Shown: positions 2,592-63,242 of the stretch, one piece after another
Layout: each line of letters starts with the position of its first letter
Position numbering within the stretch: the stretch's first letter is position 1
DNA from: Escherichia coli
Lineage (GTDB): Bacteria; Pseudomonadota; Gammaproteobacteria; Enterobacterales; Enterobacteriaceae
Length of the DNA stretch: 64,000 nt
Strand: one strand, 5' to 3'
Assembly: GCF_030013205.1 (NCBI RefSeq)
Contig: NZ_CP122648.1
The notes under the pieces: generated by a model
Told to the model about the DNA's origin: nothing
What the model saw: only the letters and a program-made list of their open reading frames with translations
Databases searched by the model: none
Made by a program: the position numbers and the translations under genes

Positions 2592-4256
2592 ATGTGTTCA
2601 ATTTTTGGCGTATTCGATATCAAAACAGACGCAGTTGAGCTGCGTAAGAAAGCACTCGAACTGTCACGCCTGATGCGTCATCGTGGCCCGGACTGGTCCG
2701 GTATTTATGCCAGCGATAACGCCATTCTCGCCCACGAACGTCTGTCAATTGTTGACGTTAACGCGGGGGCGCAACCTCTCTACAACCAACAAAAAACTCA
2801 TGTGCTGGCGGTAAACGGTGAAATCTACAACCACCAGGCACTGCGCGCCGAATATGGCGATCGTTATCAGTTCCAGACCGGATCTGACTGCGAAGTGATC
2901 CTCGCGCTGTATCAGGAAAAAGGGCCGGAATTTCTCGACGACTTGCAGGGCATGTTTGCCTTTGCCCTGTACGACAGCGAAAAAGATGCATATCTGATTG
3001 GTCGCGACCATCTGGGGATCATCCCACTGTATATGGGCTATGACGAACACGGTCAGCTGTATGTGGCCTCAGAAATGAAAGCCCTGGTGCCAGTTTGCCG
3101 CACGATTAAAGAGTTCCCGGCGGGGAGCTATTTGTGGAGCCAGGACGGCGAAATCCGTTCTTATTATCACCGCGACTGGTTCGACTTTGATGCAGTGAAA
3201 GATAACGTGACCGACAAAAACGAGCTGCGTCAGGCACTGGAAGATTCCGTTAAAAGCCATCTGATGTCTGATGTGCCTTACGGTGTGCTGCTTTCTGGTG
3301 GTCTGGATTCCTCAATTATTTCCGCGATCACCAAGAAATACGCCGCCCGTCGCGTGGAAGATCAGGAACGTTCTGAAGCCTGGTGGCCGCAGTTACACTC
3401 CTTTGCTGTAGGTCTGCCGGGTTCACCGGATCTGAAAGCAGCCCAGGAAGTGGCAAACCATCTGGGCACTGTGCATCACGAAATTCACTTCACTGTACAG
3501 GAAGGTCTGGACGCCATCCGCGACGTGATTTACCACATCGAAACCTATGATGTGACCACTATTCGCGCTTCAACACCGATGTATTTAATGTCGCGTAAGA
3601 TCAAGGCGATGGGCATTAAAATGGTGCTGTCCGGTGAAGGTTCTGATGAAGTGTTTGGCGGTTATCTTTACTTCCACAAAGCACCGAATGCCAAAGAACT
3701 GCATGAAGAGACGGTGCGTAAACTGCTGGCCCTGCATATGTATGACTGCGCGCGTGCCAACAAAGCGATGTCAGCCTGGGGCGTGGAAGCACGCGTTCCG
3801 TTCCTCGACAAAAAATTCCTTGATGTGGCGATGCGTATTAACCCACAGGATAAAATGTGCGGTAACGGCAAAATGGAAAAACACATCCTGCGTGAATGTT
3901 TTGAAGCGTATCTGCCTGCAAGCGTGGCCTGGCGGCAGAAAGAGCAGTTCTCCGATGGCGTCGGTTACAGTTGGATCGATACCCTGAAAGAAGTGGCGGC
4001 GCAGCAGGTTTCTGATCAACAGCTGGAAACTGCCCACTTCCGCTTCCCGTACAACACGCCGACGTCCAAAGAAGCGTATCTGTACCGGGAGATCTTTGAA
4101 GAACTGTTCCCGCTTCCGAGCGCCGCAGAGTGCGTACCGGGCGGTCCTTCCGTCGCGTGTTCTTCCGCTAAAGCGATCGAATGGGATGAAGCGTTCAAAA
4201 AAATGGACGATCCATCTGGTCGTGCGGTTGGTGTTCACCAGTCGGCATATAAATAA
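2592..4256 (+). CDS. asnB: asparagine synthetase B (glutamine-hydrolysing)
   Basis: 554 aa beginning MCSIFGV (N-terminal Cys of class II amidotransferases), SGGLDSS PP-loop; ATG at 2592 preceded by GGAGAAGG; the longer track ORF from 2511 is an upstream extension. Confidence 0.95.
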   Translation: MCSIFGVFDIKTDAVELRKKALELSRLMRHRGPDWSGIYASDNAILAHERLSIVDVNAGAQPLYNQQKTHVLAVNGEIYNHQALRAEYGDRYQFQTGSDCEVILALYQEKGPEFLDDLQGMFAFALYDSEKDAYLIGRDHLGIIPLYMGYDEHGQLYVASEMKALVPVCRTIKEFPAGSYLWSQDGEIRSYYHRDWFDFDAVKDNVTDKNELRQALEDSVKSHLMSDVPYGVLLSGGLDSSIISAITKKYAARRVEDQERSEAWWPQLHSFAVGLPGSPDLKAAQEVANHLGTVHHEIHFTVQEGLDAIRDVIYHIETYDVTTIRASTPMYLMSRKIKAMGIKMVLSGEGSDEVFGGYLYFHKAPNAKELHEETVRKLLALHMYDCARANKAMSAWGVEARVPFLDKKFLDVAMRINPQDKMCGNGKMEKHILRECFEAYLPASVAWRQKEQFSDGVGYSWIDTLKEVAAQQVSDQQLETAHFRFPYNTPTSKEAYLYREIFEELFPLPSAAECVPGGPSVACSSAKAIEWDEAFKKMDDPSGRAVGVHQSAYK

Positions 4257-4270
4257 GACGTATAATATTG

Positions 4271-4296
4271 CCCCGGAGAAATCCGGGGCAATTTCA
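4271..4296 (+). terminator. probable asnB terminator hairpin
   Basis: CCCCGGA-GAAA-TCCGGGG stem-loop 15 bp after the asnB stop; weak U tract. Confidence 0.45.
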
Positions 4297-4567
4297 GTTA
4301 CTGGGGCGCTTGTTGATTCTGATATGCAGTAAGGAAATGTTCCGGGTTTGCCACATCGCTGTTTGACAACTCATCACTGTAGGCCAGTATTTCATAGATT
4401 AATTTCCCACCACTATTGTTGAATTCCGAATTTCATCCTGTATGACAAAAGAATGGCTGTAGGGTGGGGAAAAAACACAAAGTAAACAATAATTGACGAA
4501 TATAGCGCCATGCTGTTCGCAACCTAACCAAACAGTCACTTTCGAGCAATTTTCCTTGAAAAAGAGG

Positions 4568-4596
4568 TTGACGCTGCAAGGCTCTATACGCATAAT
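4568..4596 (+). promoter_or_regulatory. sigma70-type promoter of the tRNA operon (-35 TTGACG 4568-4573, 17-bp spacer, -10 CATAAT 4591-4596, GC-rich discriminator GCGCCCC)
   Basis: Hexamers and spacing read directly from the sequence, about 40 bp upstream of the first tRNA; GC-rich discriminator is typical of stringently controlled stable-RNA promoters. Confidence 0.5.
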
Positions 4597-4636
4597 GCGC
4601 CCCGCAACGCCGATAAGGTATCGCGAAAAAAAAGAT

Positions 4637-4713
4637 GGCTACGTAGCTCAGTTGGTTAGAGCACATCACTCATAATGATGGGGTCACAGGTTCGAATCCC
4701 GTCGTAGCCACCA
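4637..4713 (+). tRNA. metT: tRNA-Met (anticodon CAU, elongator)
   Basis: 77-nt sequence GGCTACGTAGCTCAGTTGGTTAGAGCACATCACTCATAATGATGGGGTCACAGGTTCGAATCCCGTCGTAGCCACCA with encoded CCA. Confidence 0.95.
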
Positions 4714-4721
4714 TCTTTTTT

Positions 4722-4806
4722 GCGGGAGTGGCGAAATTGGTAGACGCACCAGATTTAGGTTCTGGCGCCGCAAGGTGTGCGAGTTCAAGTCTCGCCTCCC
4801 GCACCA
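4722..4806 (+). tRNA. leuW: tRNA-Leu (anticodon UAG)
   Basis: 85-nt type II tRNA with long variable arm; anticodon loop TTTAGGT; encoded CCA. Confidence 0.95.
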
Positions 4807-4829
4807 TTCACCAGAAAGCGTTGTACGGA

Positions 4830-4904
4830 TGGGGTATCGCCAAGCGGTAAGGCACCGGTTTTTGATACCGGCATTCCCTGGTTCGAATCCAGGTACCCCA
4901 GCCA
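4830..4904 (+). tRNA. glnU: tRNA-Gln (anticodon UUG)
   Basis: 75-nt TGGGGTATCGCCAAGCGGTAAGGCACCGGTTTTTGATACCGG..CCAGCCA; anticodon TTG. Confidence 0.95.
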
Positions 4905-4938
4905 TATTCTTCGAGTAAGCGGTTCACCGCCCGGTTAT

Positions 4939-5013
4939 TGGGGTATCGCCAAGCGGTAAGGCACCGGTTTTTGATACCGGCATTCCCTGGTTCGAATCCA
5001 GGTACCCCAGCCA
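4939..5013 (+). tRNA. glnW: tRNA-Gln (anticodon UUG), identical second copy
   Basis: 75-nt sequence identical to the copy at 4830-4904. Confidence 0.95.
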
Positions 5014-6702: not shown

Positions 6703-8127
6703 ATGACCAAAAAACTCCATATTAAAACCTGGGGCTGTCAGATGAACGAGTACGATTCATCGAAGATGGCCGATCTGCTGGATGCCACCCACGGCTATCA
6801 ACTGACCGACGTGGCGGAAGAAGCGGATGTGCTGCTGCTGAACACCTGCTCAATCCGCGAGAAGGCTCAGGAAAAAGTCTTCCATCAGTTGGGTCGCTGG
6901 AAACTGTTAAAAGAGAAGAATCCAGACCTGATTATCGGCGTCGGCGGCTGCGTGGCATCGCAAGAAGGTGAGCACATTCGCCAGCGCGCCCACTATGTCG
7001 ATATTATTTTTGGGCCGCAAACGCTGCACCGTCTGCCGGAGATGATCAACTCCGTGCGCGGCGACCGCAGCCCGGTTGTAGATATCAGCTTCCCGGAAAT
7101 CGAGAAGTTTGACCGTCTGCCGGAACCGCGCGCCGAAGGACCGACCGCGTTTGTCTCCATCATGGAAGGCTGCAATAAATATTGCACCTACTGCGTAGTG
7201 CCTTACACCCGTGGTGAAGAGGTAAGCCGTCCGTCCGACGATATTCTGTTTGAGATCGCCCAGCTTGCGGCTCAGGGCGTGCGTGAAGTTAACCTGCTCG
7301 GTCAGAACGTGAACGCCTGGCGTGGTGAAAACTACGACGGCACCACCGGATCGTTTGCCGATCTGCTGCGTCTGGTTGCTGCGATCGACGGGATCGATCG
7401 TATTCGCTTTACCACCAGCCATCCGATCGAATTCACCGACGATATCATCGAAGTGTACCGCGACACGCCGGAGCTGGTGAGCTTCCTGCATCTGCCGGTA
7501 CAGAGCGGTTCCGATCGCATTCTGAACCTGATGGGACGTACCCATACAGCGCTGGAGTACAAAGCGATCATCCGTAAACTGCGTGCGGCGCGTCCGGATA
7601 TTCAGATCAGTTCTGACTTCATCGTTGGCTTCCCTGGCGAAACCACCGAAGACTTCGAGAAAACGATGAAGCTGATTACCGACGTCAATTTCGACATGAG
7701 CTACAGCTTTATCTTCTCTGCACGTCCGGGTACGCCAGCCGCCGATATGGTTGATGATGTTCCGGAAGAAGAGAAGAAGCAGCGTCTGTATATTCTGCAA
7801 GAACGCATTAATCAGCAAGCGATGGCATGGAGCCGCCGAATGCTCGGCACCACCCAGCGTATTCTGGTAGAAGGTACATCGCGTAAGAGCATCATGGAGC
7901 TTTCCGGTCGCACTGAAAATAACCGCGTGGTTAACTTCGAAGGTACACCGGATATGATCGGTAAATTCGTCGATGTAGAAATTACCGACGTCTACCCGAA
8001 CTCTCTGCGCGGTAAAGTGGTGCGAACTGAAGATGAAATGGGTCTGCGCGTGGCAGAAACACCGGAATCGGTGATTGCCCGTACCCGCAAAGAAAACGAC
8101 CTTGGCGTGGGTTATTATCAGCCGTAA
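6703..8127 (+). CDS. miaB: tRNA-i6A37 methylthiotransferase MiaB (radical SAM)
   Basis: 474 aa; radical-SAM cysteine motif CNKYCTYC. Confidence 0.95.
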
Positions 8128-22620: not shown

Positions 22621-23232
22621 ATGCGACTGTGGTTAATTCGTCATGGTGAAACGCAAGCGAATATCGATGGTCTGTACAGCGGTCATGCTCCCACACCCCT
22701 GACTGCGCGCGGTATTGAGCAAGCGCAAAATCTGCATACGCTGCTACATGGTGTTTCCTTTGACCTGGTTTTATGCAGTGAACTGGAACGGGCACAGCAT
22801 ACCGCGCGACGGGTTCTCAGTGATCGCCAGCTTCCCGTGCAAATCATCCCTGAACTCAACGAAATGTTTTTTGGCGACTGGGAGATGCGACATCATCGCG
22901 ACCTCATGCAAGAAGATGCCGAAAACTATAGCGCGTGGTGCAATGACTGGCAGCATGCTATCCCCACGAACGGTGAAGGATTTCAGGCATTTTCACAACG
23001 TGTGGAACGGTTTATCGCAAGGCTTAGTGAATTTCAGCACTATCAGAATATTTTAGTCGTCAGCCATCAGGGTGTACTGAGTCTGTTAATCGCCCGTTTA
23101 ATTGGTATGCCTGCCGAAGCTATGTGGCATTTTCGCGTTGACCAGGGGTGTTGGAGCGCCATTGATATCAACCAAAAATTCGCGACGCTACGCGTCCTCA
23201 ATAGCCGTGCCATCGGGGTCGAGAATGCATGA
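22621..23232 (+). CDS. cobC: histidine-phosphatase family protein CobC/PhpB (alpha-ribazole phosphatase-like)
   Basis: 203 aa; RHGETQAN catalytic motif; alternative start one codon upstream (22618). Confidence 0.9.
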   Translation: MRLWLIRHGETQANIDGLYSGHAPTPLTARGIEQAQNLHTLLHGVSFDLVLCSELERAQHTARRVLSDRQLPVQIIPELNEMFFGDWEMRHHRDLMQEDAENYSAWCNDWQHAIPTNGEGFQAFSQRVERFIARLSEFQHYQNILVVSHQGVLSLLIARLIGMPAEAMWHFRVDQGCWSAIDINQKFATLRVLNSRAIGVENA

Positions 23233-49829: not shown

Positions 49830-50535
49830 CTCCGGCATAGCCGGAGGTTTTTCAAATGCGCCTATAAGGCTCTCTTACCAGCCGCGCCCTAACAGGCGCA
49901 CACGATCTGACATTTGCATCCAACTTCGTTACTTACGGCCCGTAAACGGGCTGCCCGGATAGGGAATCGATAACTGCTCTCCCATTTTATCCTCTTCAAG
50001 CTGGTGCTTTATGTAATCCTGTATCTTCGCCGTGTTCTTACCCACTGTATCGACGTAGTACCCTCTGCACCAGAACTCCCTGTTCCTGTATTTGAATTTC
50101 AAATCACCAAACTGCTCGTAAAGCATCAGACTGCTTTTCCCTTTCAGATATCCCATAAACCCGGATACGCTCATTTTGGGCGGGATCTCCACAAGCATAT
50201 GGATATGATCTGCACAGCATTCAGCTTCCAGAATCCGTACGCTTTTCCACTCACACAGCTTTCTCAAAATACTGCCTATTGCTCTACGCTTCTCTCTGTA
50301 GAACACCTGTCTTCGGTATTTTGGCGCAAAAACTATGTGATATTTACAGTTCCATCGGGTGTGCGCTAAGCTCTTTTCGTTCCCCATTGGGACCCCCTTT
50401 TGATTTCTTGTTTGACACTTGCAGTTGCCAGACCGCAAGGTGTTTTAACAAATCAAAAGGGGTTTTAATAACTGGCTCAAAGCTGAAAGCTTTCCGGAAC
50501 CCCCAGCCTAGCTGGGGGTTTTCTGTGCACAAAAA
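49830..50535 (-). mobile_element. IS200-family insertion sequence (boundaries approximate, +/- about 30 bp)
   Basis: Contains a 152-aa Y1 (HUH) transposase gene; upstream of it the characteristic perfect hairpin CCCCCAGC-CTA-GCTGGGGG (50500-50518) and a second stem-loop (CCCCTTTTGATTTG..CAAATCAAAAGGGG) occluding the RBS; size about 0.7 kb as expected for IS200. Confidence 0.8.
49929..50387 (-). CDS. tnpA: IS200 transposase TnpA (Y1/HUH)
   Basis: MGNEKSLAHTRWNCKYHIVFAPKYRR..ADHIHMLVEIPPK.. with HUH motif HIH; near-identical to the IS200 TnpA I recall from Salmonella; the track ORF starts 17 codons upstream. Confidence 0.9.
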   Translation of the reverse strand: MGNEKSLAHTRWNCKYHIVFAPKYRRQVFYREKRRAIGSILRKLCEWKSVRILEAECCADHIHMLVEIPPKMSVSGFMGYLKGKSSLMLYEQFGDLKFKYRNREFWCRGYYVDTVGKNTAKIQDYIKHQLEEDKMGEQLSIPYPGSPFTGRK

Positions 50536-53261: not shown

Positions 53262-54008
53262 ATGTTAAAAAAGATACTTTTACTGGCTCTGCTTCCTGCA
53301 ATCGCCTTCGCAGAGGAACTTCCTGCCCCAGTAAAAGCGATTGAAAAACAGGGCATTACAATCATCAAAACGTTCGATGCTCCCGGAGGAATGAAAGGTT
53401 ATCTCGGAAAGTATCAGGATATGGGCGTCACCATCTACCTGACTCCAGATGGTAAGCACGCTATCTCCGGTTACATGTACAACGAGAAAGGTGAAAACCT
53501 GAGTAACACACTTATCGAAAAAGAAATTTACGCACCAGCCGGACGCGAAATGTGGCAACGGATGGAACAATCCCACTGGCTCCTCGACGGTAAAAAAGAC
53601 GCGCCGGTCATTGTTTACGTCTTCGCCGATCCGTTCTGCCCATATTGTAAACAGTTCTGGCAGCAGGCGCGCCCGTGGGTAGATTCTGGCAAAGTGCAAT
53701 TAAGAACATTGTTGGTTGGGGTTATCAAGCCAGAAAGCCCGGCGACAGCAGCGGCAATTCTTGCCGCCAAAGATCCCGCAAAAACCTGGCAAGAATATGA
53801 AGCCTCTGGTGGCAAGCTTAAGCTAAACGTGCCTGCAAACGTAAGTACAGAGCAAATGAAAGTGTTAAGCGACAACGAGAAACTCATGGACGATCTGGGG
53901 GCAAATGTCACACCAGCTATCTACTACATGAGTAAGGAAAATACACTGCAACAGGCCGTGGGGTTGCCCGATCAGAAAACGCTTAATATCATTATGGGGA
54001 ATAAATAA
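53262..54008 (+). CDS. dsbG: periplasmic thiol:disulfide isomerase DsbG
   Basis: 248 aa from [17 protein letters not shown] (signal peptide); CPYC active site; the track ORF starts 20 codons upstream. Confidence 0.9.
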
Positions 54009-54215
54009 AAGATAATTCATGGATGGTTGAAATATATCCCTGTTTTTCAACCATCCTAAAAAAGCATGAATTGCTCGCTCTGCCCTAAGTGGCTGTGCTA
54101 TTTTAGAAAAACTTAATTCTGAGTTAAGCAAAAAAACATAATACAAATAAATACAACAGCAACATTATTGAACAAATGAATGATTTATAGAAGAGATAAT
54201 ATAACGGAGTATGTT

Positions 54216-55118
54216 ATGGCGAATCTTTATGACCTAAAAAAATTTGATCTGAATTTACTGGTCATATTTGAGTGCATTTATCAACACCTCAGCATTAGCA
54301 AAGCAGCAGAATCATTATATATAACGCCCTCTGCTGTTAGTCAGTCGTTACAACGTTTACGTGCGCAATTTAATGACCCGTTATTCATTCGCTCAGGGAA
54401 AGGTATCGCGCCGACTACGACAGGGTTAAATCTGCATCATCATCTTGAGAAAAATCTCAGAGGCCTTGAACAAACGATCAATATTGTTAATAAGTCTGAG
54501 CTAAAGAAAAATTTTATTATCTACGGTCCTCAGCTTATTTCTTGTACTAATAACAACATGCTAATCCGCTGTCTTAGACAAGATACTTCAATCGATATAG
54601 AATGCCATGACATACTGCTTTCAGCTGAAAATGCCGAAGAACTGTTGGTTCAACGCAAAACTGACCTGGCAATTACACTACAACCAGTAATTAGCCGCTC
54701 TGTCATCTGCATGCCGTTACATACTATTCGCAATTCTCTTATATGTAGCAACAAACATCCTCGTATTACCGATACCAGTAACTATGAACAAATTATCGCC
54801 GAAGAATTCACCTTGTTGATATCTAAATCAGCAGGGATTGACGAAATTCAAATGGACATAGATGAACGTTTTATGAACCGTAAAGTTTCATTTCGCAGTT
54901 CTTCTTTGTTGACGATAATTAATAGTATTTCTGTTACTGACTTATTGGGCATTGTGCCCACCGAACTGTACGATTTACATCGTGATTTTTTGAAGTTACA
55001 AGAGATAAAACTGGAACAACCACTTCCTGCGGTTAAACTTTATATTTCCTATAACAAGGCTTCGTTGAACAACCTTGTCTTCTCACGATTCATAGATCGT
55101 TTAAATGATAGCTTCTGA
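54216..55118 (+). CDS. ybdO: LysR-family transcriptional regulator YbdO
   Basis: 300 aa from MANLYDLKKFDLNLLVIFECIY.. (HTH ..ITPSAVSQSLQRLR..); strongly AT-rich; the track ORF starts 12 codons upstream. Confidence 0.85.
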   Translation: MANLYDLKKFDLNLLVIFECIYQHLSISKAAESLYITPSAVSQSLQRLRAQFNDPLFIRSGKGIAPTTTGLNLHHHLEKNLRGLEQTINIVNKSELKKNFIIYGPQLISCTNNNMLIRCLRQDTSIDIECHDILLSAENAEELLVQRKTDLAITLQPVISRSVICMPLHTIRNSLICSNKHPRITDTSNYEQIIAEEFTLLISKSAGIDEIQMDIDERFMNRKVSFRSSSLLTIINSISVTDLLGIVPTELYDLHRDFLKLQEIKLEQPLPAVKLYISYNKASLNNLVFSRFIDRLNDSF

Positions 55119-55264
55119 TTTAATACCACTGATAAATGTTATATTACGCATCAATTGATTCATTGTGTGAATATAAAATAATGTGCTCTATCTTGCTTCG
55201 TTTACCCTATAATTAGCGGATTCATCTCACGAGTCACCCCGTAACGTTCAGAGAGCGTTTTCAG

Positions 55265-56485
55265 ATGTCTATTTATAAAATCCCGCTTCCACTGAATATT
55301 CTGGAAGCTGCAAAAGAACGTATTACCTGGACACTTAACACCCTACCCCGCGTCTGCGTTTCTTTTTCGGGTGGTAAAGATTCCGGATTAATGCTGCATC
55401 TGACCGCCGAACTTGCCCGACAAATGGGCAAAAAAATTTGTGTTTTATTTATCGACTGGGAAGCTCAGTTCTCTTGCACCATTAACTATGTTCAGTCCCT
55501 GCGCGAGTTGTACACCGATGTCATCGAAGAGTTTTACTGGGTTGCACTCCCGCTTACAACGCAAAATTCCCTATCACAATACCAACCCGAATGGCAGTGC
55601 TGGGAACCTGATGTCGAATGGGTACGTCAGCCTCCGCAAGATGCGATAACCGATCCTGACTTTTTCTCCTTTTACCAGCCAGGCATGACCTTCGAACAAT
55701 TTGTGCGTGAGTTTGCCGAATGGTTTTCACAAAAACGTCCGGCGGCGATGATGATCGGCATCCGTGCGGATGAGTCCTACAACCGTTTTGTCGCCATCGC
55801 CAGTTTAAATAAACAACGTTTTGCCGATGATAAGCCCTGGACCACTGCCGCACCAGGCGGTCATAGCTGGTACATTTACCCCATCTACGACTGGAAAGTC
55901 GCTGATATCTGGACCTGGTATGCAAATCATCAAAGTCTCTGCAACCCACTGTATAACCTAATGTATCAGGCAGGCGTTCCTCTGCGTCATATGCGAATTT
56001 GCGAACCTTTTGGCCCGGAGCAACGACAAGGATTATGGCTCTATCACGTTATCGAACCGGATCGCTGGGCTGCTATGTGCGCACGAGTCAGCGGGGTAAA
56101 AAGTGGCGGCATTTACGCCGGACATGACAACCATTTTTATGGTCATCGGAAAATCCTCAAGCCCGAACATTTAGACTGGCAGGAGTATGCATTATTGCTA
56201 CTCAACAGCATGCCGGAGAAAACAGCTGAGCATTATCGCAATAAAATCGCCATTTATTTGCACTGGTATCAGAAAAAAGGCATCGAGGTTCCACAAACCC
56301 AGCAAGGGGACATTGGCGCGAAAGATATCCCCTCCTGGCGGCGAATATGCAAAGTTTTACTCAATAACGATTACTGGTGTCGGGCATTATCATTTAGCCC
56401 GACCAAAGCGAAGAACTATCAGCGTTATAACGAACGAATAAAAGGAAAACGTCAGGAATGGGGGATACTATGCAACAACGATTAA
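55265..56485 (+). CDS. ybdN: PAPS-reductase-like PP-loop ATP-pyrophosphatase family protein YbdN (IbrA homologue)
   Basis: 406 aa; PP-loop motif VSFSGGKDSGLM near the N terminus. Confidence 0.85.
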   Translation: MSIYKIPLPLNILEAAKERITWTLNTLPRVCVSFSGGKDSGLMLHLTAELARQMGKKICVLFIDWEAQFSCTINYVQSLRELYTDVIEEFYWVALPLTTQNSLSQYQPEWQCWEPDVEWVRQPPQDAITDPDFFSFYQPGMTFEQFVREFAEWFSQKRPAAMMIGIRADESYNRFVAIASLNKQRFADDKPWTTAAPGGHSWYIYPIYDWKVADIWTWYANHQSLCNPLYNLMYQAGVPLRHMRICEPFGPEQRQGLWLYHVIEPDRWAAMCARVSGVKSGGIYAGHDNHFYGHRKILKPEHLDWQEYALLLLNSMPEKTAEHYRNKIAIYLHWYQKKGIEVPQTQQGDIGAKDIPSWRRICKVLLNNDYWCRALSFSPTKAKNYQRYNERIKGKRQEWGILCNND

Positions 56486-57087
56486 CGCAGGATTTAACCC
56501 AATTTCTCGCCAGCTTGCCGGAAGACGATCGCATCAAAGCGATTAATGAAATCCGCATGGCGATCCATAAGGTCAGTCCTTTTCGTGAAGAGCCGGTGCA
56601 TTGTGTTTTGTGGGTGAAAAATAGCCAGCTCGTGCCGAATGATTACAATCCCAATAATGTGGCACCACCAGAGAAGAAACTGCTGCAAAAATCCATTGAA
56701 ATAGATGGCTTTACGCAACCCATTGTGGTCACGCATACAGATAAAAATGCTCTGGAAATTGTTGATGGTTTTCACCGCCATGAAATAGGTAAAGGCTTAT
56801 CATCGTTAAAATTACGCTTAAAAGGTTATTTGCCAGTAACCTGTCTGGAAGGTACACGTAATCAACGCATCGCCGCGACTATTCGTCATAACCGCGCCCG
56901 TGGTCGCCATCAAATCACTGCCATGTCCGAAATTGTTCGTGAACTCAGCCAGTTGGGATGGGACGATCATAAAATCGGCAAAGAGCTGGGAATGGACAGC
57001 GACGAGGTGCTGCGCCTGAAACAAATTAACGGCCTGCAAGAACTGTTTGCCGACCGTCAATTTTCCCGCGCATGGACGGTTAAATAA
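56458..57087 (+). CDS. ybdM: ParB/sulfiredoxin-like domain protein YbdM (IbrB homologue)
   Basis: 209 aa; DGFHRHE motif of the ParB/Srx (DGQHR-like) fold; overlaps ybdN by 28 nt. Confidence 0.8.
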   Translation: MGDTMQQRLTQDLTQFLASLPEDDRIKAINEIRMAIHKVSPFREEPVHCVLWVKNSQLVPNDYNPNNVAPPEKKLLQKSIEIDGFTQPIVVTHTDKNALEIVDGFHRHEIGKGLSSLKLRLKGYLPVTCLEGTRNQRIAATIRHNRARGRHQITAMSEIVRELSQLGWDDHKIGKELGMDSDEVLRLKQINGLQELFADRQFSRAWTVK

Positions 57088-58248
57088 CTACAGCTGGCGC
57101 AGGCGTTCAGCGGCTGCCAGCAACGTCGATTCCTTCTTGGCAAAACAGAGACGAATCAGTTTATGGGGGAAGGGATCGGCGCAAAACACCGACAGCGGAA
57201 TCGCCGCTACACCGTGCTCCCGCGTCAGCCACTGGCAAAACTCAACATCATCCAGCGTAGACACGGCGCTGTAATTCACCAGCAAAAAGTATGTACCTTC
57301 GCACGGTAAAATCTCCAGCCGGCTTTCACTTAAGGCATTCACCAGAATATCGCGTTTTTGGCGATAAAAGTCCGGTAACGCAAGATAATGCTCAGGTTCT
57401 GCACGTAGCATATCCGCAAGTGCCAGCTGTGCCGGGGTATTCACCGAAAAGGTCAGATACTGGTGTACCTTGCGAATTTCAGCGCTGATGGGCGCTGGCG
57501 CAACGCAATAACCCACTTTCCAGCCGGTCATATGATAGGTCTTGCCAAATGAAGAAACTGCCACCGCCCGCTCACGCAGCTGCGGATGCGCCAGCACGCT
57601 GGCATGGCCCTGTTGTGAAAAGTTGATGTGCTCGTAAACTTCATCGCTAATGACAAAAATCTCGTGCCCGGCAATTGCCTGCCACAAAGCGGCGAAATCA
57701 GCCTGCTGCCAGACAGTTGCACTGGGGTTATGCGGGGTGTTGAGGATCACCTGTCGGGTGCGCTCGCTTAACAATGCGGCAAATTCCTGCCAGTCCACGC
57801 GAAAATGCGGTGGTTGCAGTGCAATACGTTTCACTATTCCCCCCGAAAGCGCGATGGCGGGCGCGTAACTGTCATAGCTGGGATCAAAGCAGATCACTTC
57901 ATCACCATTGCGCACCAATGCGGTAATCGCTGCATATAACGCTTCCGTCGCCCCTGCCGTTACGGTGATATCACTATCGGCATCCGGTTGATAGCCATAC
58001 AGACGTTCCGTTTTCTGAGCAATCGCCTCGCGCAAGGCCTGCACGCCAGTCATAGGCGCGTATTGGTTTGCCCCCTGGTCAACATGGTACGCCAGCCGCT
58101 CCTGCAAATAGCGCGGACCATCAAAATCAGGAAAGCCTTGCGACAGGTTAATCGCCTGGTGTTGCTGCGCCAACGCGCTCATCTGGGTGAAAATAGTGGT
58201 GCCAAGTTGTGGAAGTTTGCTTTGTGGAATCAGAGGGTTATTTGTCAT
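57088..58248 (-). CDS. ybdL: methionine aminotransferase YbdL (PLP-dependent)
   Basis: 386 aa; PLP-lysine context SSFGKTYHMTGWKVGY; its stop codon abuts the ybdM stop. Confidence 0.9.
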   Translation of the reverse strand: MTNNPLIPQSKLPQLGTTIFTQMSALAQQHQAINLSQGFPDFDGPRYLQERLAYHVDQGANQYAPMTGVQALREAIAQKTERLYGYQPDADSDITVTAGATEALYAAITALVRNGDEVICFDPSYDSYAPAIALSGGIVKRIALQPPHFRVDWQEFAALLSERTRQVILNTPHNPSATVWQQADFAALWQAIAGHEIFVISDEVYEHINFSQQGHASVLAHPQLRERAVAVSSFGKTYHMTGWKVGYCVAPAPISAEIRKVHQYLTFSVNTPAQLALADMLRAEPEHYLALPDFYRQKRDILVNALSESRLEILPCEGTYFLLVNYSAVSTLDDVEFCQWLTREHGVAAIPLSVFCADPFPHKLIRLCFAKKESTLLAAAERLRQL

Positions 58249-58355
58249 TTTTTATTGTGCCTGACGAAGTTGTGTTGAAGGCACTATAACACGATGCTAG
58301 TATTTGGCAATCAAGACGTTTAGATGTCTAAATAAAACAATAAGGACAACACAAC

Positions 58356-59444
58356 ATGCCTCACAATCCTATCCGCGTGGTCGTAGGCCCGGCTAACTAC
58401 TTTTCACATCCAGGAAGTTTCAATCACCTGCACGATTTTTTCACTGATGAACAACTTTCTCGCGCGGTGTGGATCTACGGCGAACGCGCCATTGCTGCGG
58501 CGCAAACAAAACTTCCGCCAGCGTTTGAACTGCCAGGGGCAAAGCATTTTTTGTTTCGCGGTCATTGCAGCGAAAGCGGTGTACAACAACTGGCGGCTGA
58601 CTCCGGTGACGATCGCAGCGTGGTGATTGGCGTCGGCGGCGGCGCACTGCTCGACACCGCAAAAGCCCTCGCCCGCCGTCTCGGTCTGCCGTTTGTTGCC
58701 GTTCCGACGATAGCCGCTACCTGCGCCGCCTGGACACCGCTCTCCGTCTGGTATAACGATGCCGGACAGGCGCTGCATTTTGAGATTTTCGACGACGCCA
58801 ATTTTATGGTGCTGGTGGAACCAGAGATTATCCTCAATGCGCCGCAACAATATCTGCTGGCGGGGATCGGTGACACGCTGGCGAAATGGTATGAAGCGGT
58901 GGTGCTGGCTCCGCAACCAGAAACGTTGCCGCTAACCGTGCGGCTGGGGATCAATAATGCGCAGGCCATTCGCGACGTCTTGTTAAACAGTAGCGAACAG
59001 GCGCTTGCCGATCAGCAAAATCACCAGTTAACGCAATCATTTTGCGATGTGGTGGATGCCATTATTGCTGGTGGTGGGATGGTCGGTGGTCTGGGCGATC
59101 GTTTTACGCGTGTGGCGGCGGCCCATGCCGTGCATAACGGTCTGACCGTTTTGCCGCAAACCGAGAAGTTTCTCCACGGCACCAAAGTCGCCTACGGAAT
59201 TCTGGTGCAAAGCGCCTTGCTGGGTCAGGATGATGTGCTGGCGCAATTAACTGGAGCGTATCAGCGTTTTCATCTGCCGACTACGCTGGCGGAGCTGGAA
59301 GTGGATATCAATAATCAGGCGGAGATCGACAAAGTGATTGCCCACACCTTGCGTCCGGTGGAATCCATTCATTACCTGCCAGTCACGCTGACACCAGATA
59401 CGTTGCGTGCAGCGTTCGAAAAAGTGGAATCGTTTAAAGCCTGA
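58356..59444 (+). CDS. ybdH: glycerol-dehydrogenase-like (iron-ADH family) oxidoreductase YbdH
   Basis: 362 aa; GVGGGALLDTAK nucleotide-binding motif. Confidence 0.9.
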   Translation: MPHNPIRVVVGPANYFSHPGSFNHLHDFFTDEQLSRAVWIYGERAIAAAQTKLPPAFELPGAKHFLFRGHCSESGVQQLAADSGDDRSVVIGVGGGALLDTAKALARRLGLPFVAVPTIAATCAAWTPLSVWYNDAGQALHFEIFDDANFMVLVEPEIILNAPQQYLLAGIGDTLAKWYEAVVLAPQPETLPLTVRLGINNAQAIRDVLLNSSEQALADQQNHQLTQSFCDVVDAIIAGGGMVGGLGDRFTRVAAAHAVHNGLTVLPQTEKFLHGTKVAYGILVQSALLGQDDVLAQLTGAYQRFHLPTTLAELEVDINNQAEIDKVIAHTLRPVESIHYLPVTLTPDTLRAAFEKVESFKA

Positions 59445-59453
59445 CGTACATAT

Positions 59454-59651
59454 TTAGCAGCAGCGCGCGCCGCCTTTTCCACCGTAGCGCGCGTCCTGCC
59501 GCTCACGGAAAAACTCCTCGTAGGTCATCGGCGTTTGATCGGGATGGTTAACCCGCATATGTTCGACATAGTTGTCGTAATCAGGCATACCAATCATCAG
59601 TTTCGCCGCCTGACCTAAATATTTTCCGGCTTTTGCCAGTGAATCAAACAT
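59454..59651 (-). CDS. ybdD: small DUF466 protein YbdD (co-transcribed with cstA)
   Basis: 65 aa [65 protein letters not shown]; the track ORF is 1 codon longer. Confidence 0.85.
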
Positions 59652-59716
59652 CAATACCTCCGGTAAACAGGTTGCTGAGAGAGTGCATTAATAGCTATCA
59701 ACGCACTTGGTCAGTC

Positions 59717-59786
59717 CCCTCGCCCCATCGGGGAGAGGGTTAGGGTGAGGGGGAACTCTCGGAGCCATGCCAACATTCCCCCTCAC
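59717..59786. repeat. compound palindromic element in the cstA-ybdD spacer
   Basis: Two adjacent inverted repeats: CCCCTCGCCCC-ATC-GGGGAGAGGG (59717-59739) and GTGAGGGGGAA-N20-TTCCCCCTCAC (59745-59786). Confidence 0.5.
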
Positions 59787-59793
59787 TCTGACT

Positions 59794-61899
59794 TTAGTGC
59801 GCGCCTTTCGCCTGCGCCACGATCTCCTCGACATTTTCCGGCATCGGCTCATATGGCGTTTCTTTCGCCGTTGGCTTCGGCTCTTTCAATGCCGCAAGTG
59901 CCGTCTTAATCGAGAACAGTGCCAGAACCACCACGACCACCATAAAGAAGATGGTTAACCCGGCATCCAGACGGTTGTTGAACACCAGTTGCGCCAGCTG
60001 TGACTCAGTATACTGCGATGGAATATTGCCGCTGTCGATCATTGCCTGGAACTTGTTAGCAATCGCCAGGAAGCCGACTTTCGCATCCGGGCTAAACGCT
60101 TTCTGCCAGCCTGCGGTCAGGGTACAAATCAGCAGCCAGGCCGTTGGTACCAGCGCCACCCAGGCGTAACGTTGACGTTTCATTTTGAACAACACTACGG
60201 CACAGAGCATCAGCGCCATCCCTGCCAGCATCTGGTTGGCAATACCAAACAGCGGCCACAGAGTGTTAATACCGCCCAGCGGATCGACCACTCCCTGATG
60301 GAGGAAGTAGCCCCACGCCAGTACGCACAGCGCCGTTGCCAGCAGGTTAGCAGGCAGTGAATCGGTCCGTTTCAGGCCCGGAGACACCACGCCCAGCAGA
60401 TCCTGCAACATAAAGCGCGCAGCACGCGTACCTGCATCCACCGCCGTCAGAATAAACAGTGCTTCAAACAAAATGGCGAAGTGATACCAGAACGCCACAT
60501 CCATCATGCCGCCCAGCGCGCCGTGCAGAATGTAGGCCATCCCCACCGCCAGCGTCGGCGCACCGCCCGCACGGGAAATGATCGACTGTTCACCCACTTC
60601 GCTGGCAATCTGGTTGAGCGTATCTGGTGTAATGCTAAATCCCCAGCTACTCACCACTTGCGCTGCAGAAGCGACCACATCCGCCGTACCTGCCGGAGCC
60701 AGCACCGCCATCGGGCTGTTCATAGCGAAGTACACACCCGGATCGATGATACAGGCGGAAACCAGCGCCATAATCGCTACGAAGGATTCCATTAACATCC
60801 CGCCGTAGCCGATAAAACACGCCTGCCCTTCGTTCGCCAGCATCTTCGGCGTGGTACCGGAAGAGATCAGCGCATGGAAGCCAGACACCGCGCCACAAGC
60901 GATGGTGATAAACAGGAACGGGAACAGGTTACCGGTCCATACCGGGCCAGTGCCATCGACAAATTTAGTTAGCGCAGGCATGGTCAGCGTCGGGCGCATA
61001 ATCAAAATGCCTACCGCCAGACCGACGATGGTCCCGATTTTCAGGAAGGTTGAGAGGTAGTCGCGCGGGGCCAGCAACAGCCACACCGGCAGCACCGCCG
61101 CCACAAAACCGTAACCCACCAGCATCCAGGTCAGCTGCACGCCGGTAAAGTCAAAGTACGGTGCCCAGGTCGGACTTTCTGCCACCCAGCCGCCAGAGAT
61201 AATGGCGAAAATCAGGAACACCAGGCCGATGACCGACACTTCGCCAATACGCCCCGGACGCAGATAGCGCAGGTAGATCCCCATAAACAGCGCCAGCGGA
61301 ATAGTGAACGCAACGGTATACGTTCCCCACGGGCTATGAGTCAGGGCTTTCACCACGATCATCGCCAGCACGGCAAGGATAATGACCATGATCATAAAGC
61401 AGGCCACCAGCGCTATCACCCCGGCGGTTGGCCCCATCTCTTCTTTGACCAGCTCACCCAGCGAGCGACCATCGCGGCGCGTAGAAACAAACAGCACCAT
61501 GAAATCCTGCACCGCACCGGCGAGAACCACCCCGGCGAGCAGCCAGATCATCCCCGGCAGGTAGCCCATTTGCGCTGCCAGCACCGGCCCAACCAGCGGA
61601 CCTGCTCCGGCAATGGCCGCAAAATGGTGACCGAACAGCACTTTCTTGTCCGTCGGCACATAGTCCAGCCCGTCGTTATGGCGCACCGCTGGCGTCATAC
61701 GCGTCGGGTCAACCGCCAGCACATTTTTGGCGATATACAGACCATAAAAACGGTAAGCGATCAGATAGATACAGACCGACGCCACCACAATCCACAGCGC
61801 GTTGATCTGTTCCCCACGATTTAAAGCAATATATCCCAGAGCAAATGCTCCCATTACAGAGAGCACTGTCCAGACGAGGTATTTCCCTGATTTGTTCAT
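59794..61899 (-). CDS. cstA: carbon starvation protein A (peptide/pyruvate transporter)
   Basis: 701-aa polytopic membrane protein. Confidence 0.95.
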   Translation of the reverse strand: MNKSGKYLVWTVLSVMGAFALGYIALNRGEQINALWIVVASVCIYLIAYRFYGLYIAKNVLAVDPTRMTPAVRHNDGLDYVPTDKKVLFGHHFAAIAGAGPLVGPVLAAQMGYLPGMIWLLAGVVLAGAVQDFMVLFVSTRRDGRSLGELVKEEMGPTAGVIALVACFMIMVIILAVLAMIVVKALTHSPWGTYTVAFTIPLALFMGIYLRYLRPGRIGEVSVIGLVFLIFAIISGGWVAESPTWAPYFDFTGVQLTWMLVGYGFVAAVLPVWLLLAPRDYLSTFLKIGTIVGLAVGILIMRPTLTMPALTKFVDGTGPVWTGNLFPFLFITIACGAVSGFHALISSGTTPKMLANEGQACFIGYGGMLMESFVAIMALVSACIIDPGVYFAMNSPMAVLAPAGTADVVASAAQVVSSWGFSITPDTLNQIASEVGEQSIISRAGGAPTLAVGMAYILHGALGGMMDVAFWYHFAILFEALFILTAVDAGTRAARFMLQDLLGVVSPGLKRTDSLPANLLATALCVLAWGYFLHQGVVDPLGGINTLWPLFGIANQMLAGMALMLCAVVLFKMKRQRYAWVALVPTAWLLICTLTAGWQKAFSPDAKVGFLAIANKFQAMIDSGNIPSQYTESQLAQLVFNNRLDAGLTIFFMVVVVVLALFSIKTALAALKEPKPTAKETPYEPMPENVEEIVAQAKGAH

Positions 61900-62079
61900 A
61901 GTTGTTATCCGTGTGCGTGTCCATAGAGATGTTACATTTTGTTTCTATAACATCTTTGTGCAATTTAACAACACAGCAACTATGTAAATCCGAGTTGAAA
62001 CCAATATTTAACTTAACAATGTTAACTCGATCACTCCGTTAACCGAGTTTTCCTGCAATCTCATATAATTCTGTCGGGT

Positions 62080-62493
62080 TCATCCCAAAACTGCCGTACC
62101 CAGCCGACAAGTGCAGCAACGCCGCCCCTGTTCATCGAAAACGACGATTTCCCAGCTCTGATTTTGCCGCCCAAGATGCAACGGCTGGCAGACGCCGCGT
62201 ACCTTGCCTTCAGACACCGGGCGATGATGGGTGGCGTTAAGTTCCGTGCCCACCACACACTGTCCGTCGCAGGTCATCATAAATCCGGCCATCGATCCCA
62301 GCGTTTCCGCCAGCGCCGCCGACGCGCCGCCATGCAGCAGGCCAAACGGCTGATGAGTACGGGTATCAACCGGCATTTCGGCTTCCAGCACATCATCGTC
62401 CAGACGGGTGTAAACGATTCCCAGATGCGCCACCATTGTGTTATCGCTGGTGGCGTTCAGCTCGTCGAGCGTTAAATGGCGTTTCCAGATCAT
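62080..62493 (-). CDS. entH: proofreading hotdog-fold thioesterase EntH (YbdB)
   Basis: 137-aa ORF directly downstream of entA. Confidence 0.9.
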
Positions 62494-62495
62494 GC

Positions 62496-63242
62496 TTATG
62501 CCCCCAGCGTTGAGCCGCCATCGACCACAATATCCTGTAGGGTGATATGGCTGGCGAGATCAGAGGCGAGGAACAAAATCGTATTGGCGATCTCCTGTGG
62601 ACGGGCGATTTTCCCCAGCGGAATGCCGAGTTTAAACTGCTCGCCAAAGCCGCGAATACGCTGCTCTTCGGCGTCATCGCTCACCCACAGCGTGCGTTGC
62701 ATATCGGTGTCGGTGGAACCCGGCGAAACCACATTACAGCGCACGCCGCTACCCGCCAGTTCCAGCCCAACGCTCAACGCCAGGCTTTTCAGCGCCGCTT
62801 TCGACGCGCCATAAGCACTCATACCAATGCGCGGCGTGTGTGCGGCGTCGGACGCAACAGTAACAATCGCCCCGCCCCGCTGACGGCGAAACTGGTTCAT
62901 GGTCTGCTGGAACAGGTTAAACGCACCACCGACATTGACCGCAAAAGTCTGCTGCCAGTCCTCCTTACTGAGCTGATCGGTCGCGCCCATGCGCAAAATT
63001 CCCGCCGCATTGACCAGCACGTCCAGTCGCTCCGTTTCAGCTAACAGTCGCTGACATACCTGCGCCACCTGCGCAGCATCGGCAACATCCATCACTTCGG
63101 TCGCAAAGGGATATTGCTCCTGAGCGAACGCTTGATCAAAACCAGTGACTTTCGCTCCCGCCTCAACAAACGCCAGCGCCGTGGCGTAGCCGATACCTTT
63201 CCCTGCGCCAGTTACCCAGACATTTTTACCGCTGAAATCCAT
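62496..63242 (-). CDS. entA: 2,3-dihydro-2,3-dihydroxybenzoate dehydrogenase
   Basis: 248 aa from [20 protein letters not shown] (SDR Rossmann motif); the track ORF is 10 codons longer. Confidence 0.95.

Follow-up and report, generated by a model that had tools for sequence, protein, structure and literature searches.

Nearly spacer-less convergent junctions at ybdM/ybdL and hcxA/ybdD in Escherichia coli, with read-through probably ended inside the opposing genes

The convergent gene pairs ybdM/ybdL and hcxA/ybdD of Escherichia coli meet with spacers of 0 and 9 bp, and the best explanation, to which we give a probability of about 0.8, is that these are two ordinary tail-to-tail junctions without an intergenic terminator, at which read-through is ended mainly by Rho inside the opposing genes. 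Under this reading ybdL and hcxA would diverge from one short promoter region bearing a MetJ box, ybdL running head-on into the ybdNM unit and hcxA into cstA-ybdD. Because the stops lie only 0 and 9 bp apart, polymerase from either side would continue into the opposing gene, and the RNA past the stop would be untranslated; a few hundred nucleotides further on it would be terminated, for the most part by Rho at C-rich, G-poor antisense sequence. As a result the transcripts would constitutively overlap, antisense to each other, in their 3' parts over roughly 0.4 kb each way, an arrangement of the class called "convergent excludon". A weak hairpin with a U-rich tract, at +26 to +74 relative to the ybdL stop, may contribute to termination. 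The overlap is probably a tolerated by-product and not a selected regulator.

The analysis covered a 64-kb stretch of E. coli DNA (the window), whose relevant features are collected in table 1. The initial annotation had given 0 bp for ybdM/ybdL and 9 bp for hcxA (there under its former name, ybdH) and ybdD, and both values are borne out by the sequence, the list of open reading frames (ORFs) and the RefSeq annotation of K-12. At the first junction the ybdM TAA (57085-57087, plus strand) abuts the TAG of ybdL on the minus strand (57088-57090), and despite the 0-bp spacer the two coding sequences share no nucleotide. Identical spacers are found in the RefSeq annotation of K_EC180, which has the same sequence over the locus, and of a K-12 derivative; the locus is present in 5413 of 5426 complete E. 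coli genomes. The ybdNM unit transcribes toward the first junction, with ybdN as its first gene and the ybdN 3' end overlapping the ybdM start by 28 nt (56458-56485), and ybdD is the last gene of the cstA-ybdD unit. A practical consequence of this layout is that knock-outs or insertions at either junction also disturb the 3' end of the neighbor.

Table 1.— Features of the two junctions and their surroundings (positions in the window)
Feature	Positions	Strand	Description and basis
ybdN	55265..56485	+	PAPS-reductase-like; ORF list, RefSeq, Pfam PAPS_reduct + DUF3440
ybdM	56458..57087	+	IbrB-like/ParB_N-like, 209 aa; stop TAA 57085-57087; ORF list, RefSeq
ybdL-side hairpin	57024..57062	-	In ybdL 3' extension, within ybdM codons; core 57028-57058 GACGGUCGGCAAACAGUUCUUGCAGGCCGUU; dG -13 to -17 kcal/mol
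Junction 1	57085..57090		ybdM TAA, then CTA (complement of ybdL TAG); spacer 0 bp
ybdL	57088..58248	-	Methionine-oxo-acid transaminase, 386 aa; Pfam Aminotran_1_2 E = 2e-57; ORF list, RefSeq
ybdM-side hairpin	57093..57121	+	In ybdM 3' extension, within last ybdL codons; no directly following U-tract, hence not terminator-like
C-rich, G-poor stretch	57188..57337	+	C/G 1.6-1.7; 100-250 nt past ybdM stop, untranslated antisense-ybdL RNA
ybdL sigma-70-like promoter	58283..58310	-	TTGCCA, 16-nt spacer, TG-extended TATAGT; 10/12 matches; putative, by consensus match only
Tandem MetJ met box	58314..58329	+	AGACGTTTAGATGTCT; in 107-bp ybdL/hcxA divergent promoter region; predicted by match
hcxA (formerly ybdH)	58356..59444	+	Hydroxycarboxylate dehydrogenase; TGA 59442-59444; Pfam Fe-ADH, ORF list, RefSeq
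C-rich, G-poor stretch	59004..59153	-	C/G 1.7-1.9; 300-450 nt past ybdD stop, antisense to hcxA; computed composition
Junction 2	59445..59453		9-bp spacer CGTACATAT between hcxA and ybdD stops; sequence
ybdD	59454..59651	-	YbdD/YjiX family, 65 aa; TAA 59454-59456; Pfam PF04328 E = 1.6e-30
hcxA read-through Rho position	59794..59804	+	MG1655 631994 (-) = window ~59799 (+); just inside cstA 3' end, beyond all ybdD antisense
cstA	59794..61899	-	Pyruvate/proton symporter, upstream gene of cstA-ybdD unit; ORF list, RefSeq

The eight convergent junctions of the window have spacers of 153, 44, 101, 53, 40, 169, 0, and 9 bp, the last two being ybdM/ybdL and hcxA/ybdD, the local extremes. Spacers of 9 bp or less are nevertheless a regular minority class in E. 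coli and no anomaly: the genome holds 75 convergent pairs whose coding sequences truly overlap (Huvet and Stumpf 2014, PMC4161906), short spacers are hardly beyond chance expectation, and with at least 75 pairs overlapping outright a spacer-less layout must be regarded as common and tolerated. The missing spacer at convergent genes is thus a common and previously published feature of the E. coli genome and not a new one. Our pairs resemble the convergent overlapping genes, which typically arise through movement of a stop codon (PMC4161906), in that the space between the 3' ends is eliminated; they differ in that such genes have at least one nucleotide common to both coding sequences, whereas at 0 and 9 bp neither junction has any. 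The two junctions carry little weight beyond bookkeeping, and illustrate the catalogued rule that there is no terminator between the members of many E. coli convergent pairs, whose transcripts end inside the neighbor, often via Rho.

No mRNA is complete unless it extends to its stop codon, and with the stops 0 or 9 bp apart the two transcription units at each junction must share template. A terminating ribosome, as known from ribosome footprints, also needs roughly 12-15 nt of mRNA past the stop. The expectation of the initial annotation that the convergent transcripts overlap in their 3' regions is supported by this geometry, by excludome RNA-seq (PMC12288877) and by Rho mapping at hcxA/ybdD (PMC7815308), all experimental data being from K-12, which is ~95% identical to the window across the locus. 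In MG1655, ExcludonFinder lists 165 convergent excludons, ybdL-ybdM and ybdD-hcxA included (Sanmartin et al., NAR 2025, PMC12288877); a pair is called where no fewer than 50% of the 58 strand-specific data sets show overlap, a criterion that is almost automatic with a 0-9 bp spacer when both genes are expressed and that adds little beyond geometry. Both pairs have the orientation of that class, being adjacent, on opposite strands and tail-to-tail with 3'-overlapping transcription units, and lie at its extreme short end, the intergenic regions of excludon pairs being short with a mean of 95 nt (PMC12288877). A functional excludon is defined by mutually exclusive expression and RNase III processing, whereas our two pairs are known by geometry and overlap; transcriptional interference or antisense regulation at either is a possible consequence. 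The mscL-arfA genes (PMC10070815) likewise meet tail-to-tail in E. coli, one transcript having a 3' region antisense to the neighboring gene; an antisense regulatory effect is reported there, whereas ybdL/ybdM and hcxA/ybdD are likened to it by layout.

How these transcripts end is best documented at hcxA/ybdD, where the literature shows Rho-sensitive termination in both directions in K-12. Two Rho regions, each placed only to within a few hundred nucleotides (800-nt comparison windows), are reported (Adams et al. 2021, PMC7815308, Supplementary file 2): one ~457 nt beyond the ybdD stop, inside hcxA and antisense to it (listed as antisense to ybdH; MG1655 632836, plus strand; Rho score 8.36, p = 1.3e-17), at which the upstream/downstream reads change from 121/18 in untreated cells to 115/143 with bicyclomycin, and one ~395 nt beyond the hcxA stop, past the whole of ybdD and within the end of cstA, to which it is antisense (MG1655 631994, minus strand; score 4.49, p = 7.9e-6; 78/10 untreated, 120/69 with bicyclomycin). 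The first of these maps to ~58997 on the minus strand of the window, where the C-rich, G-poor stretch past ybdD ends. The initial annotation had named termination inside the coding regions, with no overlap, as the outcome that would speak against it; the published termination regions at hcxA/ybdD do lie inside the opposing genes, but the overlap is present.

In all four 3' extensions the RNA is antisense to the opposing ORF and hence untranslated from the first base past the stop, and each has at least ~50-80 nt of untranslated RNA ahead of its termination zone. Their composition is rut-like, that is C-rich and G-poor, with C/G of 1.6-1.9 at +150 to +450 past the ybdD stop and 1.57 at +300 to +400 past the hcxA stop; the ybdL side is the weakest, with 1.45 at +50 to +150. 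In the C-rich stretch past the ybdM stop Rho may load onto ybdNM transcripts, and from composition Rho dependence is likely at ybdL/ybdM too. Peters and colleagues reportedly described, in 2012, Rho-dependent termination of antisense or untranslated 3' read-through. Known Rho-terminated read-through (PMC7815308) lies several hundred nucleotides past the stop in C-rich, G-poor RNA antisense to the neighbor, a pattern matched by measured regions in both directions at hcxA/ybdD and by composition only at ybdL/ybdM. Among the entries listed in the supplements of PMC7815308 there is no bicyclomycin-sensitive region for ybdL/ybdM; ybdNM is probably poorly expressed.

A consensus scan over 54000-62500 detected no canonical terminator at either junction, with sites no more numerous than in shuffled sequence, and no Rfam family matched the same interval at E <= 1. 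The remark in the initial annotation that there is no room for intrinsic terminators holds for the spacers but not for the region, as terminators can sit inside the opposing coding sequence. When ybdL has another convergent neighbor, a spacer of ~30 bp with a shared GC hairpin is found instead, and by this comparison the spacer-less layout is without the usual device. The alternative that ranks next is an embedded bidirectional terminator or RNA polymerase collision, in which hairpins within the last codons of the opposing genes pause both polymerases and end the transcripts near the junction. We consider it unlikely; it predicts a short (tens of nucleotides), Rho-independent overlap, with the ybdL end maybe a weak intrinsic terminator. 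Overlapping bidirectional terminators and head-on polymerase collision at convergent genes were reportedly seen with SEnd-seq by Ju and colleagues in 2019.

The ybdL-side hairpin speaks for this alternative: with the stability listed in table 1, it sits 26-64 nt past the ybdL stop (26-74 nt with the U-rich tract), between an A-rich run on its upstream side and the U-rich run AAUUUGUUUC (57027-57018) on its downstream side, is more stable in ybdL-sense RNA, two of its G-U pairs being A-C mismatches on the other strand, and has a 7-bp core that pairs in 37-46 of 46 species; a second hairpin follows just past the ybdM stop. It is, however, bulged, and although it was the sole candidate in a separate hairpin-plus-U scan it was not flagged by the consensus scan; it is a marginal candidate for an intrinsic terminator. 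RNAalifold lends it no support over the 46 species, with a consensus fold of -2.26 kcal/mol and a covariation term of -0.27. Paired cells make up 73%, against 71.5% in shuffles; a single pair switches between U-A and C-G, and most genera have a broken inner stem. Its pairing is largely explained by conserved YbdM residues (INGL...ADR), and a terminator structure kept by compensatory change is not what we find. On the ybdM side there is no terminator-like hairpin-plus-U within 370 nt past the stop, and at hcxA/ybdD neither direction has one ahead of the hairpin between cstA and ybdD.

Published transcript ends and related systems were also weighed. Term-seq under three conditions assigns no 3' end to ybdL, ybdM or ybdH and no primary end to ybdD among the supplement entries listed (PMC7815308), which for ybdL/ybdM argues against sharp ends near the junction; neither the SMRT-Cappable-seq nor the TERMITe supplements list any 3' end for these genes, and Hwang et al. 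2018, on CstA/YbdD, states nothing on transcript ends. TransTermHP "overlapping terminators" are reported in 146 of the 165 convergent excludons, a figure not split by pair (PMC12288877), and the collision model is about convergent pairs whose termination sites overlap and belong neither to the canonical intrinsic nor to the Rho-dependent kind (Wang et al., bioRxiv 10.1101/2022.10.23.513370). Like the model pair ynaJ-uspE, ybdL/ybdM has hairpin-forming sequence in the doubly transcribed region and no canonical intrinsic terminator. Collision sites of the ynaJ-uspE type, in contrast, lie between genes and have sharp, Rho-independent 3' ends, whereas the ybdL/ybdM hairpins are coding, without convincing covariation and without mapped sharp ends, and at the better-studied hcxA/ybdD junction reading extends ~400 nt both ways and is bicyclomycin-sensitive.

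Our own conservation analysis extends the geometry beyond E. coli. In 46 of the 48 enterobacterial species-level genomes in which ybdM lies beside ybdL the two stops abut at 0 bp, and they do so while YbdM drops to ~60% identity, synonymous sites have been scrambled and one stop codon has replaced another, with one 13-bp insertion at the junction sample-wide; the YbdL stop position is the same in nearly all 34 species without ybdM. This deep conservation makes the junction an example of a zero-length spacer that becomes evolutionarily "frozen". In a single E. coli genome, that of the laboratory-derived strain H15, the match breaks ~30 bp past the junction through an IS1-associated deletion, which is uninformative. 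Between hcxA and ybdD the six Escherichia loci all have 8-9 bp, and the other genera have 11 to 191 bp, or 859 bp. A loss of a terminator from this spacer in Escherichia was considered and rejected, as the Citrobacter spacers were lengthened by REP/BIME insertions to 98-191 bp and one Citrobacter keeps 11 bp; the short spacer looks ancestral. The conserved 0-bp abutment and the history of the hcxA/ybdD spacer, together with the conservation of the MetJ box, are what is new in this analysis.

The met box between ybdL and hcxA is the sole match in the window, where 0.09 would be expected by chance, and 80 of 82 loci have it at 66-87 nt upstream of ybdL; a conserved MetJ box is accordingly predicted to drive the central ybdL/hcxA pair. 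In Salmonella the signals of ybdL, ybdH, ybdD and ybdM follow the met regulon, in RNA-seq whose strandedness is not stated (PMC11481890). Expression readings of ybdM, of ybdD and of the cstA 3' end can carry read-through from MetJ-controlled ybdL/hcxA, especially in unstranded RNA-seq. Genomic SELEX places a flagellar-sigma peak at 633930 within ybdL, away from the junction.

The 0-bp conservation could point to selection that our preferred reading does not require, namely that spacers are kept absent so that MetJ de-repression of ybdL/hcxA sends antisense transcription into ybdM and across ybdD into cstA; colliding polymerases or cleavage of the duplex by RNase III would then lower ybdNM and CstA-YbdD pyruvate uptake, or the effect would run the other way. 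We hold this regulatory role to be improbable, and equally doubt that selection holds the stop-to-stop abutment as a hard-wired antisense link through saturated synonymous change and stop-codon turnover, although that persistence, the met box upstream of ybdL and the excludon status of both pairs would fit, as would the shared met-regulon response in Salmonella, expected if ybdL/hcxA transcripts cover their neighbors. If true, methionine scarcity would, through MetJ-controlled ybdL and hcxA transcription, silence the ParB-like/PAPS-reductase-like ybdNM and the CstA-YbdD pyruvate importer. Selection is not needed to keep a spacer at zero length, however: mutation has just one phosphodiester bond to hit, the C-terminus of each protein is constrained on its own account, the YbdL stop being unmoved in nearly all ybdM-less species, and one 13-bp insertion sample-wide appears close to a neutral expectation, by inference and not by calculation. 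REP elements freely invade the hcxA/ybdD spacer, so tightness is not maintained there, and the Salmonella signals co-vary, where anti-correlation is expected of an excludon. We found no pair-specific dsRNA or reciprocal-expression evidence, and p19 validation of dsRNA is reported as not feasible for convergent excludons (PMC12288877).

That one gene of each pair was mis-called, leaving no true spacer-less junction, has practically no chance of being correct and is effectively refuted by the conservation analysis as the source of both junctions: ybdM and ybdD are small or poorly characterised and YbdM scores 24.5 bits against Pfam ParB_N, just under the gathering cut-off of 26.3, but stop codons, unlike start codons, are unambiguous, all four ORFs are full-length with the same C-termini across genera and coding-type synonymous-site variation, the family matches of YbdD and YbdL are strong (table 1), and RefSeq is consistent for all four. 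The ybdM reading frame is free of frameshifts in 48 species.

The stop codons of ybdM and ybdL directly abut, and those of hcxA (the current name of ybdH, the label still used in cited papers) and ybdD lie 9 bp apart; both distances and their coordinates, as proposed in the initial annotation, are exact according to the sequence and its open reading frames. We put at roughly 80% the probability that both are spacer-less convergent junctions lacking an intergenic terminator, with mainly Rho-ended antisense read-through. Polymerases arriving from each side would pass into the opposing gene, where their transcripts, antisense and untranslated, would mainly be terminated by Rho after a few hundred nucleotides, leaving a constitutive 3' overlap of the convergent transcripts. 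This Rho-ended overlap is the best supported reading: it was demonstrated in K-12 for hcxA–ybdD, and we infer it for ybdL–ybdM.

Features at and around the two convergent junctions (window positions)
Feature	Position	Strand	Details
ybdM	56458..57087	+	stop TAA 57085-57087
ybdL	57088..58248	-	stop TAG; complement CTA directly after ybdM TAA
hcxA	58356..59444	+	stop TGA 59442-59444
ybdD	59454..59651	-	stop TAA 59454-59456
hcxA–ybdD spacer			9 bp, CGTACATAT, between the two stops
ybdN/ybdM overlap	56458-56485		28 nt; ybdM start within ybdN 3' end
ybdL-side bulged hairpin	core 57028-57058	-	dG -13 to -17 kcal/mol; 26-64 nt beyond ybdL stop, then AAUUUGUUUC
Tandem met box	58314-58329		AGACGTTTAGATGTCT; within the 107-bp ybdL/hcxA divergent region
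Rho region, MG1655 632836 (+)	~58997	-	'antisense ybdH'
Rho region, MG1655 631994 (-)	~59799	+	'antisense cstA'
Hairpin in last ybdD codons	59457-59500	-	strong, GC-rich, GCAGGACGCGCGC...GCGCGCGCUGCUGC; no U-tract after
cstA–ybdD intergenic	59655-59793		142 bp, vs 182 bp in K-12
K-12 Term-seq 3' end, 632098 (+)	about 59706	-	in the cstA–ybdD intergenic region

The overlap of the 3' ends, initially deduced from geometry, is supported and in fact already known from the literature for both pairs; the interference also suggested in the initial annotation would be a possible consequence. ybdL–ybdM and ybdD–hcxA are named in the MG1655 'excludome' (Table 1 of ExcludonFinder, PMC12288877), which includes pairs whose transcript boundaries overlap in at least 50% of 58 strand-specific RNA-seq samples; because a spacer of 0–9 bp meets this almost automatically once both genes are expressed, the listing mainly indicates that both are transcribed. 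More is told by the Rho termination regions of Adams et al. 2021 (PMC7815308, Supplementary file 2), derived from DirectRNA-seq with and without bicyclomycin. In the region antisense to ybdH, upstream/downstream reads were 121/18 untreated and 115/143 with bicyclomycin (Rho score 8.36, p = 1.3e-17), and in that antisense to cstA 78/10 and 120/69 (Rho score 4.49); we recalculated both scores by hand from the published counts and checked the coordinate transfer from MG1655 with a 61-mer around 632098 taken from that paper. In K-12, transcription from cstA–ybdD thus runs ~457 nt into hcxA antisense, and that from hcxA traverses the whole of ybdD and the cstA–ybdD intergenic region (~395 nt), both being stopped by Rho; the 800-nt windows behind the scores make these positions coarse. 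The examined supplementary files of PMC7815308 list no Term-seq 3' end or Rho region for ybdL or ybdM, and the SMRT-Cappable-seq and TERMITe supplements hold no entries for the genes of either junction. This work adds modestly to that: a 0-bp junction that is deeply conserved, a second junction whose length varies through REP elements, and a conserved predicted met box for the central divergent pair ybdL/hcxA.

Among the eight convergent junctions annotated in the window (spacers of 153, 44, 101, 53, 40, 169, 0 and 9 bp) these two are the local extremes, yet they are only mildly unusual: with 75 convergent E. coli pairs having truly overlapping coding sequences (Huvet & Stumpf, PMC4161906) and 165 having overlapping transcripts (PMC12288877), they belong to a well-catalogued class. 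That terminators would not fit, as stated earlier, holds for the spacers themselves but does not apply beyond them. Scans found no canonical intrinsic terminator and no Rfam element at either junction. By composition, all four 3' extensions contain C-rich, G-poor stretches, with C/G of 1.6–1.7 at +100 to +250 for ybdM, 1.6–1.9 at +150 to +450 for ybdD, matching the mapped Rho region, and 1.57 at +300 to +400 for hcxA.

The sole terminator-like feature is the ybdL-side hairpin, made wholly of the last ~20 ybdM codons, and termination near ybdL–ybdM by such an embedded hairpin or by RNA polymerase collision (bioRxiv 10.1101/2022.10.23.513370) is an unlikely though not negligible alternative. We took 80 YbdL-centred loci (L003–L082; each species represented by a single genome, the range running from Escherichia to Pantoea and Mixta) and determined stop-to-stop distances by tblastn followed by in-frame extension to the stop. 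ybdM–ybdN converges on ybdL in 48 loci, including two of E. coli; 46 of these have a spacer of exactly 0 bp (position ~7159-7164 in each), covering Escherichia, Citrobacter, Salmonella, Enterobacter, Klebsiella, Raoultella, Kluyvera, Lelliottia, Pseudocitrobacter, Superficieibacter and Huaxiibacter. Across these 46 sequences the 7-bp core of the hairpin pairs in 37–46, most genera have a broken inner stem, the region scores -2.26 kcal/mol in RNAalifold (covariation term -0.27), and overall pairing (73%) barely exceeds that of column shuffles (71.5%). The hairpin is therefore better seen as a free by-product of the conserved INGL…ADR codons. Beside other neighbours, ybdL shares a GC hairpin with the convergent gene in a spacer of ~30 bp (Kosakonia and Cedecea) or has a textbook terminator (Mangrovibacter); in Pantoea and Mixta the neighbour is co-directional.

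The two exceptions, the related Citrobacter sp. Cu233 (L016) and C. youngae CCUG 30791 (L046), have 13 bp between the stops (TGACGTGATTTCG and TGACGCGATTTCG), which we read as one insertion because the inserts are near-identical. Elsewhere the abutment is kept while YbdM drops to ~60% identity, all four bases occur at the adjacent third-codon positions, and the stops turn over (TAG, TAA or TGA for ybdL; TAA or TAG for ybdM). We read this conservation as inertia and not selection, by argument rather than a fitted model, because the YbdL stop lies at an unchanged position in nearly all of the 34 species without ybdM, the amino acids of the YbdM C-terminus (…AWTVK) are conserved, and a spacer of zero length can change neutrally only through an insertion at a single specific bond. 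A selected antisense switch driven by MetJ appears improbable, more so than termination at the hairpin.

Transcription from the centre into the two junctions would be driven by the ybdL/hcxA divergent region, whose met box is the only match in the window (0.09 expected by chance) and lies directly upstream of the -35 in a good promoter-like site for ybdL. In 80 of 82 enterobacterial loci such a box, with at most three mismatches, recurs 66–87 nt upstream of ybdL, a score that only ~2% of random 200-mers attain. This predicted site would place ybdL, and probably hcxA, in the MetJ regulon across the order. ybdL, ybdH, ybdD and ybdM all follow the met regulon in Salmonella, as would be expected from ybdL and hcxA read-through over their neighbours, a hypothetical reading because the strandedness of the RNA-seq is not stated (PMC11481890). 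Genomic SELEX placed a flagellar-sigma (RpoF) holoenzyme peak inside ybdL (MG1655 633930, about window 57900; PMC5493296), which, if an internal promoter, could add transcription toward one junction.

Every one of the six Escherichia loci has hcxA and ybdD 8–9 bp apart. Among Citrobacter, one locus has 11 bp, another falls with Salmonella diarizonae at 35–45 bp, and others reach 98–191 bp. REP/BIME-type palindromes (GCCGGATG...CTTATCCGGCCTAC) make up the long spacers, and these lengths and contents suggest that the short spacer is probably ancestral and was occasionally invaded by REPs. REP/BIME-like expansions were seen in L016, L019, L021, L023, L032, L038, L039 and L046 (spacer ~4590-4780), and Pseudocitrobacter has 859 bp between the genes. 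In Kluyvera (L024, L057, L059, L062, L067, L070) hcxA is absent and ybdD, with cstA upstream, lies on the strand of ybdL and stops about 90–95 bp short of the ybdL start, so that cstA–ybdD read-through would enter ybdL in the sense direction. The cstA–ybdD intergenic region carries two GC-rich palindromes, GTGAGGGGGAA...TTCCCCCTCAC (about -20 kcal/mol) and CCCTCTCCCCGATGGGGCGAGGGG; the K-12 3' end there (PMC7815308) suggests partial termination or processing between the two genes.

The 0- and 9-bp spacers stand likewise in the RefSeq annotation of strain K_EC180 (100% identity over the locus) and of one K-12 derivative, and the chance that they are an annotation artefact is negligible. Pfam identifies an aminotransferase, an Fe-ADH, YbdD (PF04328, 'Selenoprotein, putative') and a PAPS-reductase-like protein, with a ParB_N match of YbdM slightly under threshold. 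The locus is present in 5413 of 5426 complete E. coli genomes, mostly at ~95% identity. For 56400-59700, only 18 of 5420 E. coli records reach at least 99% identity, most, K-12 included, being at ~95%; the window's lineage therefore has a divergent allele of the ybdN–ybdD region. The ybdN/ybdM overlap is consistent with a translationally coupled ybdNM operon. The laboratory-derived E. coli EC0880B_R4 (L084, locus 4215-4968) has an IS1 ~85 bp beyond the ybdM stop and unrelated sequence (vgrG) in place of ybdL, hcxA, ybdD and cstA, an IS1-associated deletion or rearrangement beginning ~30 bp past the junction. One mismatch and one indel separate the first 50 kb of the window from K_EC180; the annotation of that strain has cobC as a frameshifted pseudogene (~22622-23232) and an IS200C-family tnpA (~49929-50387) downstream of uspG, convergent with it at 169 bp.
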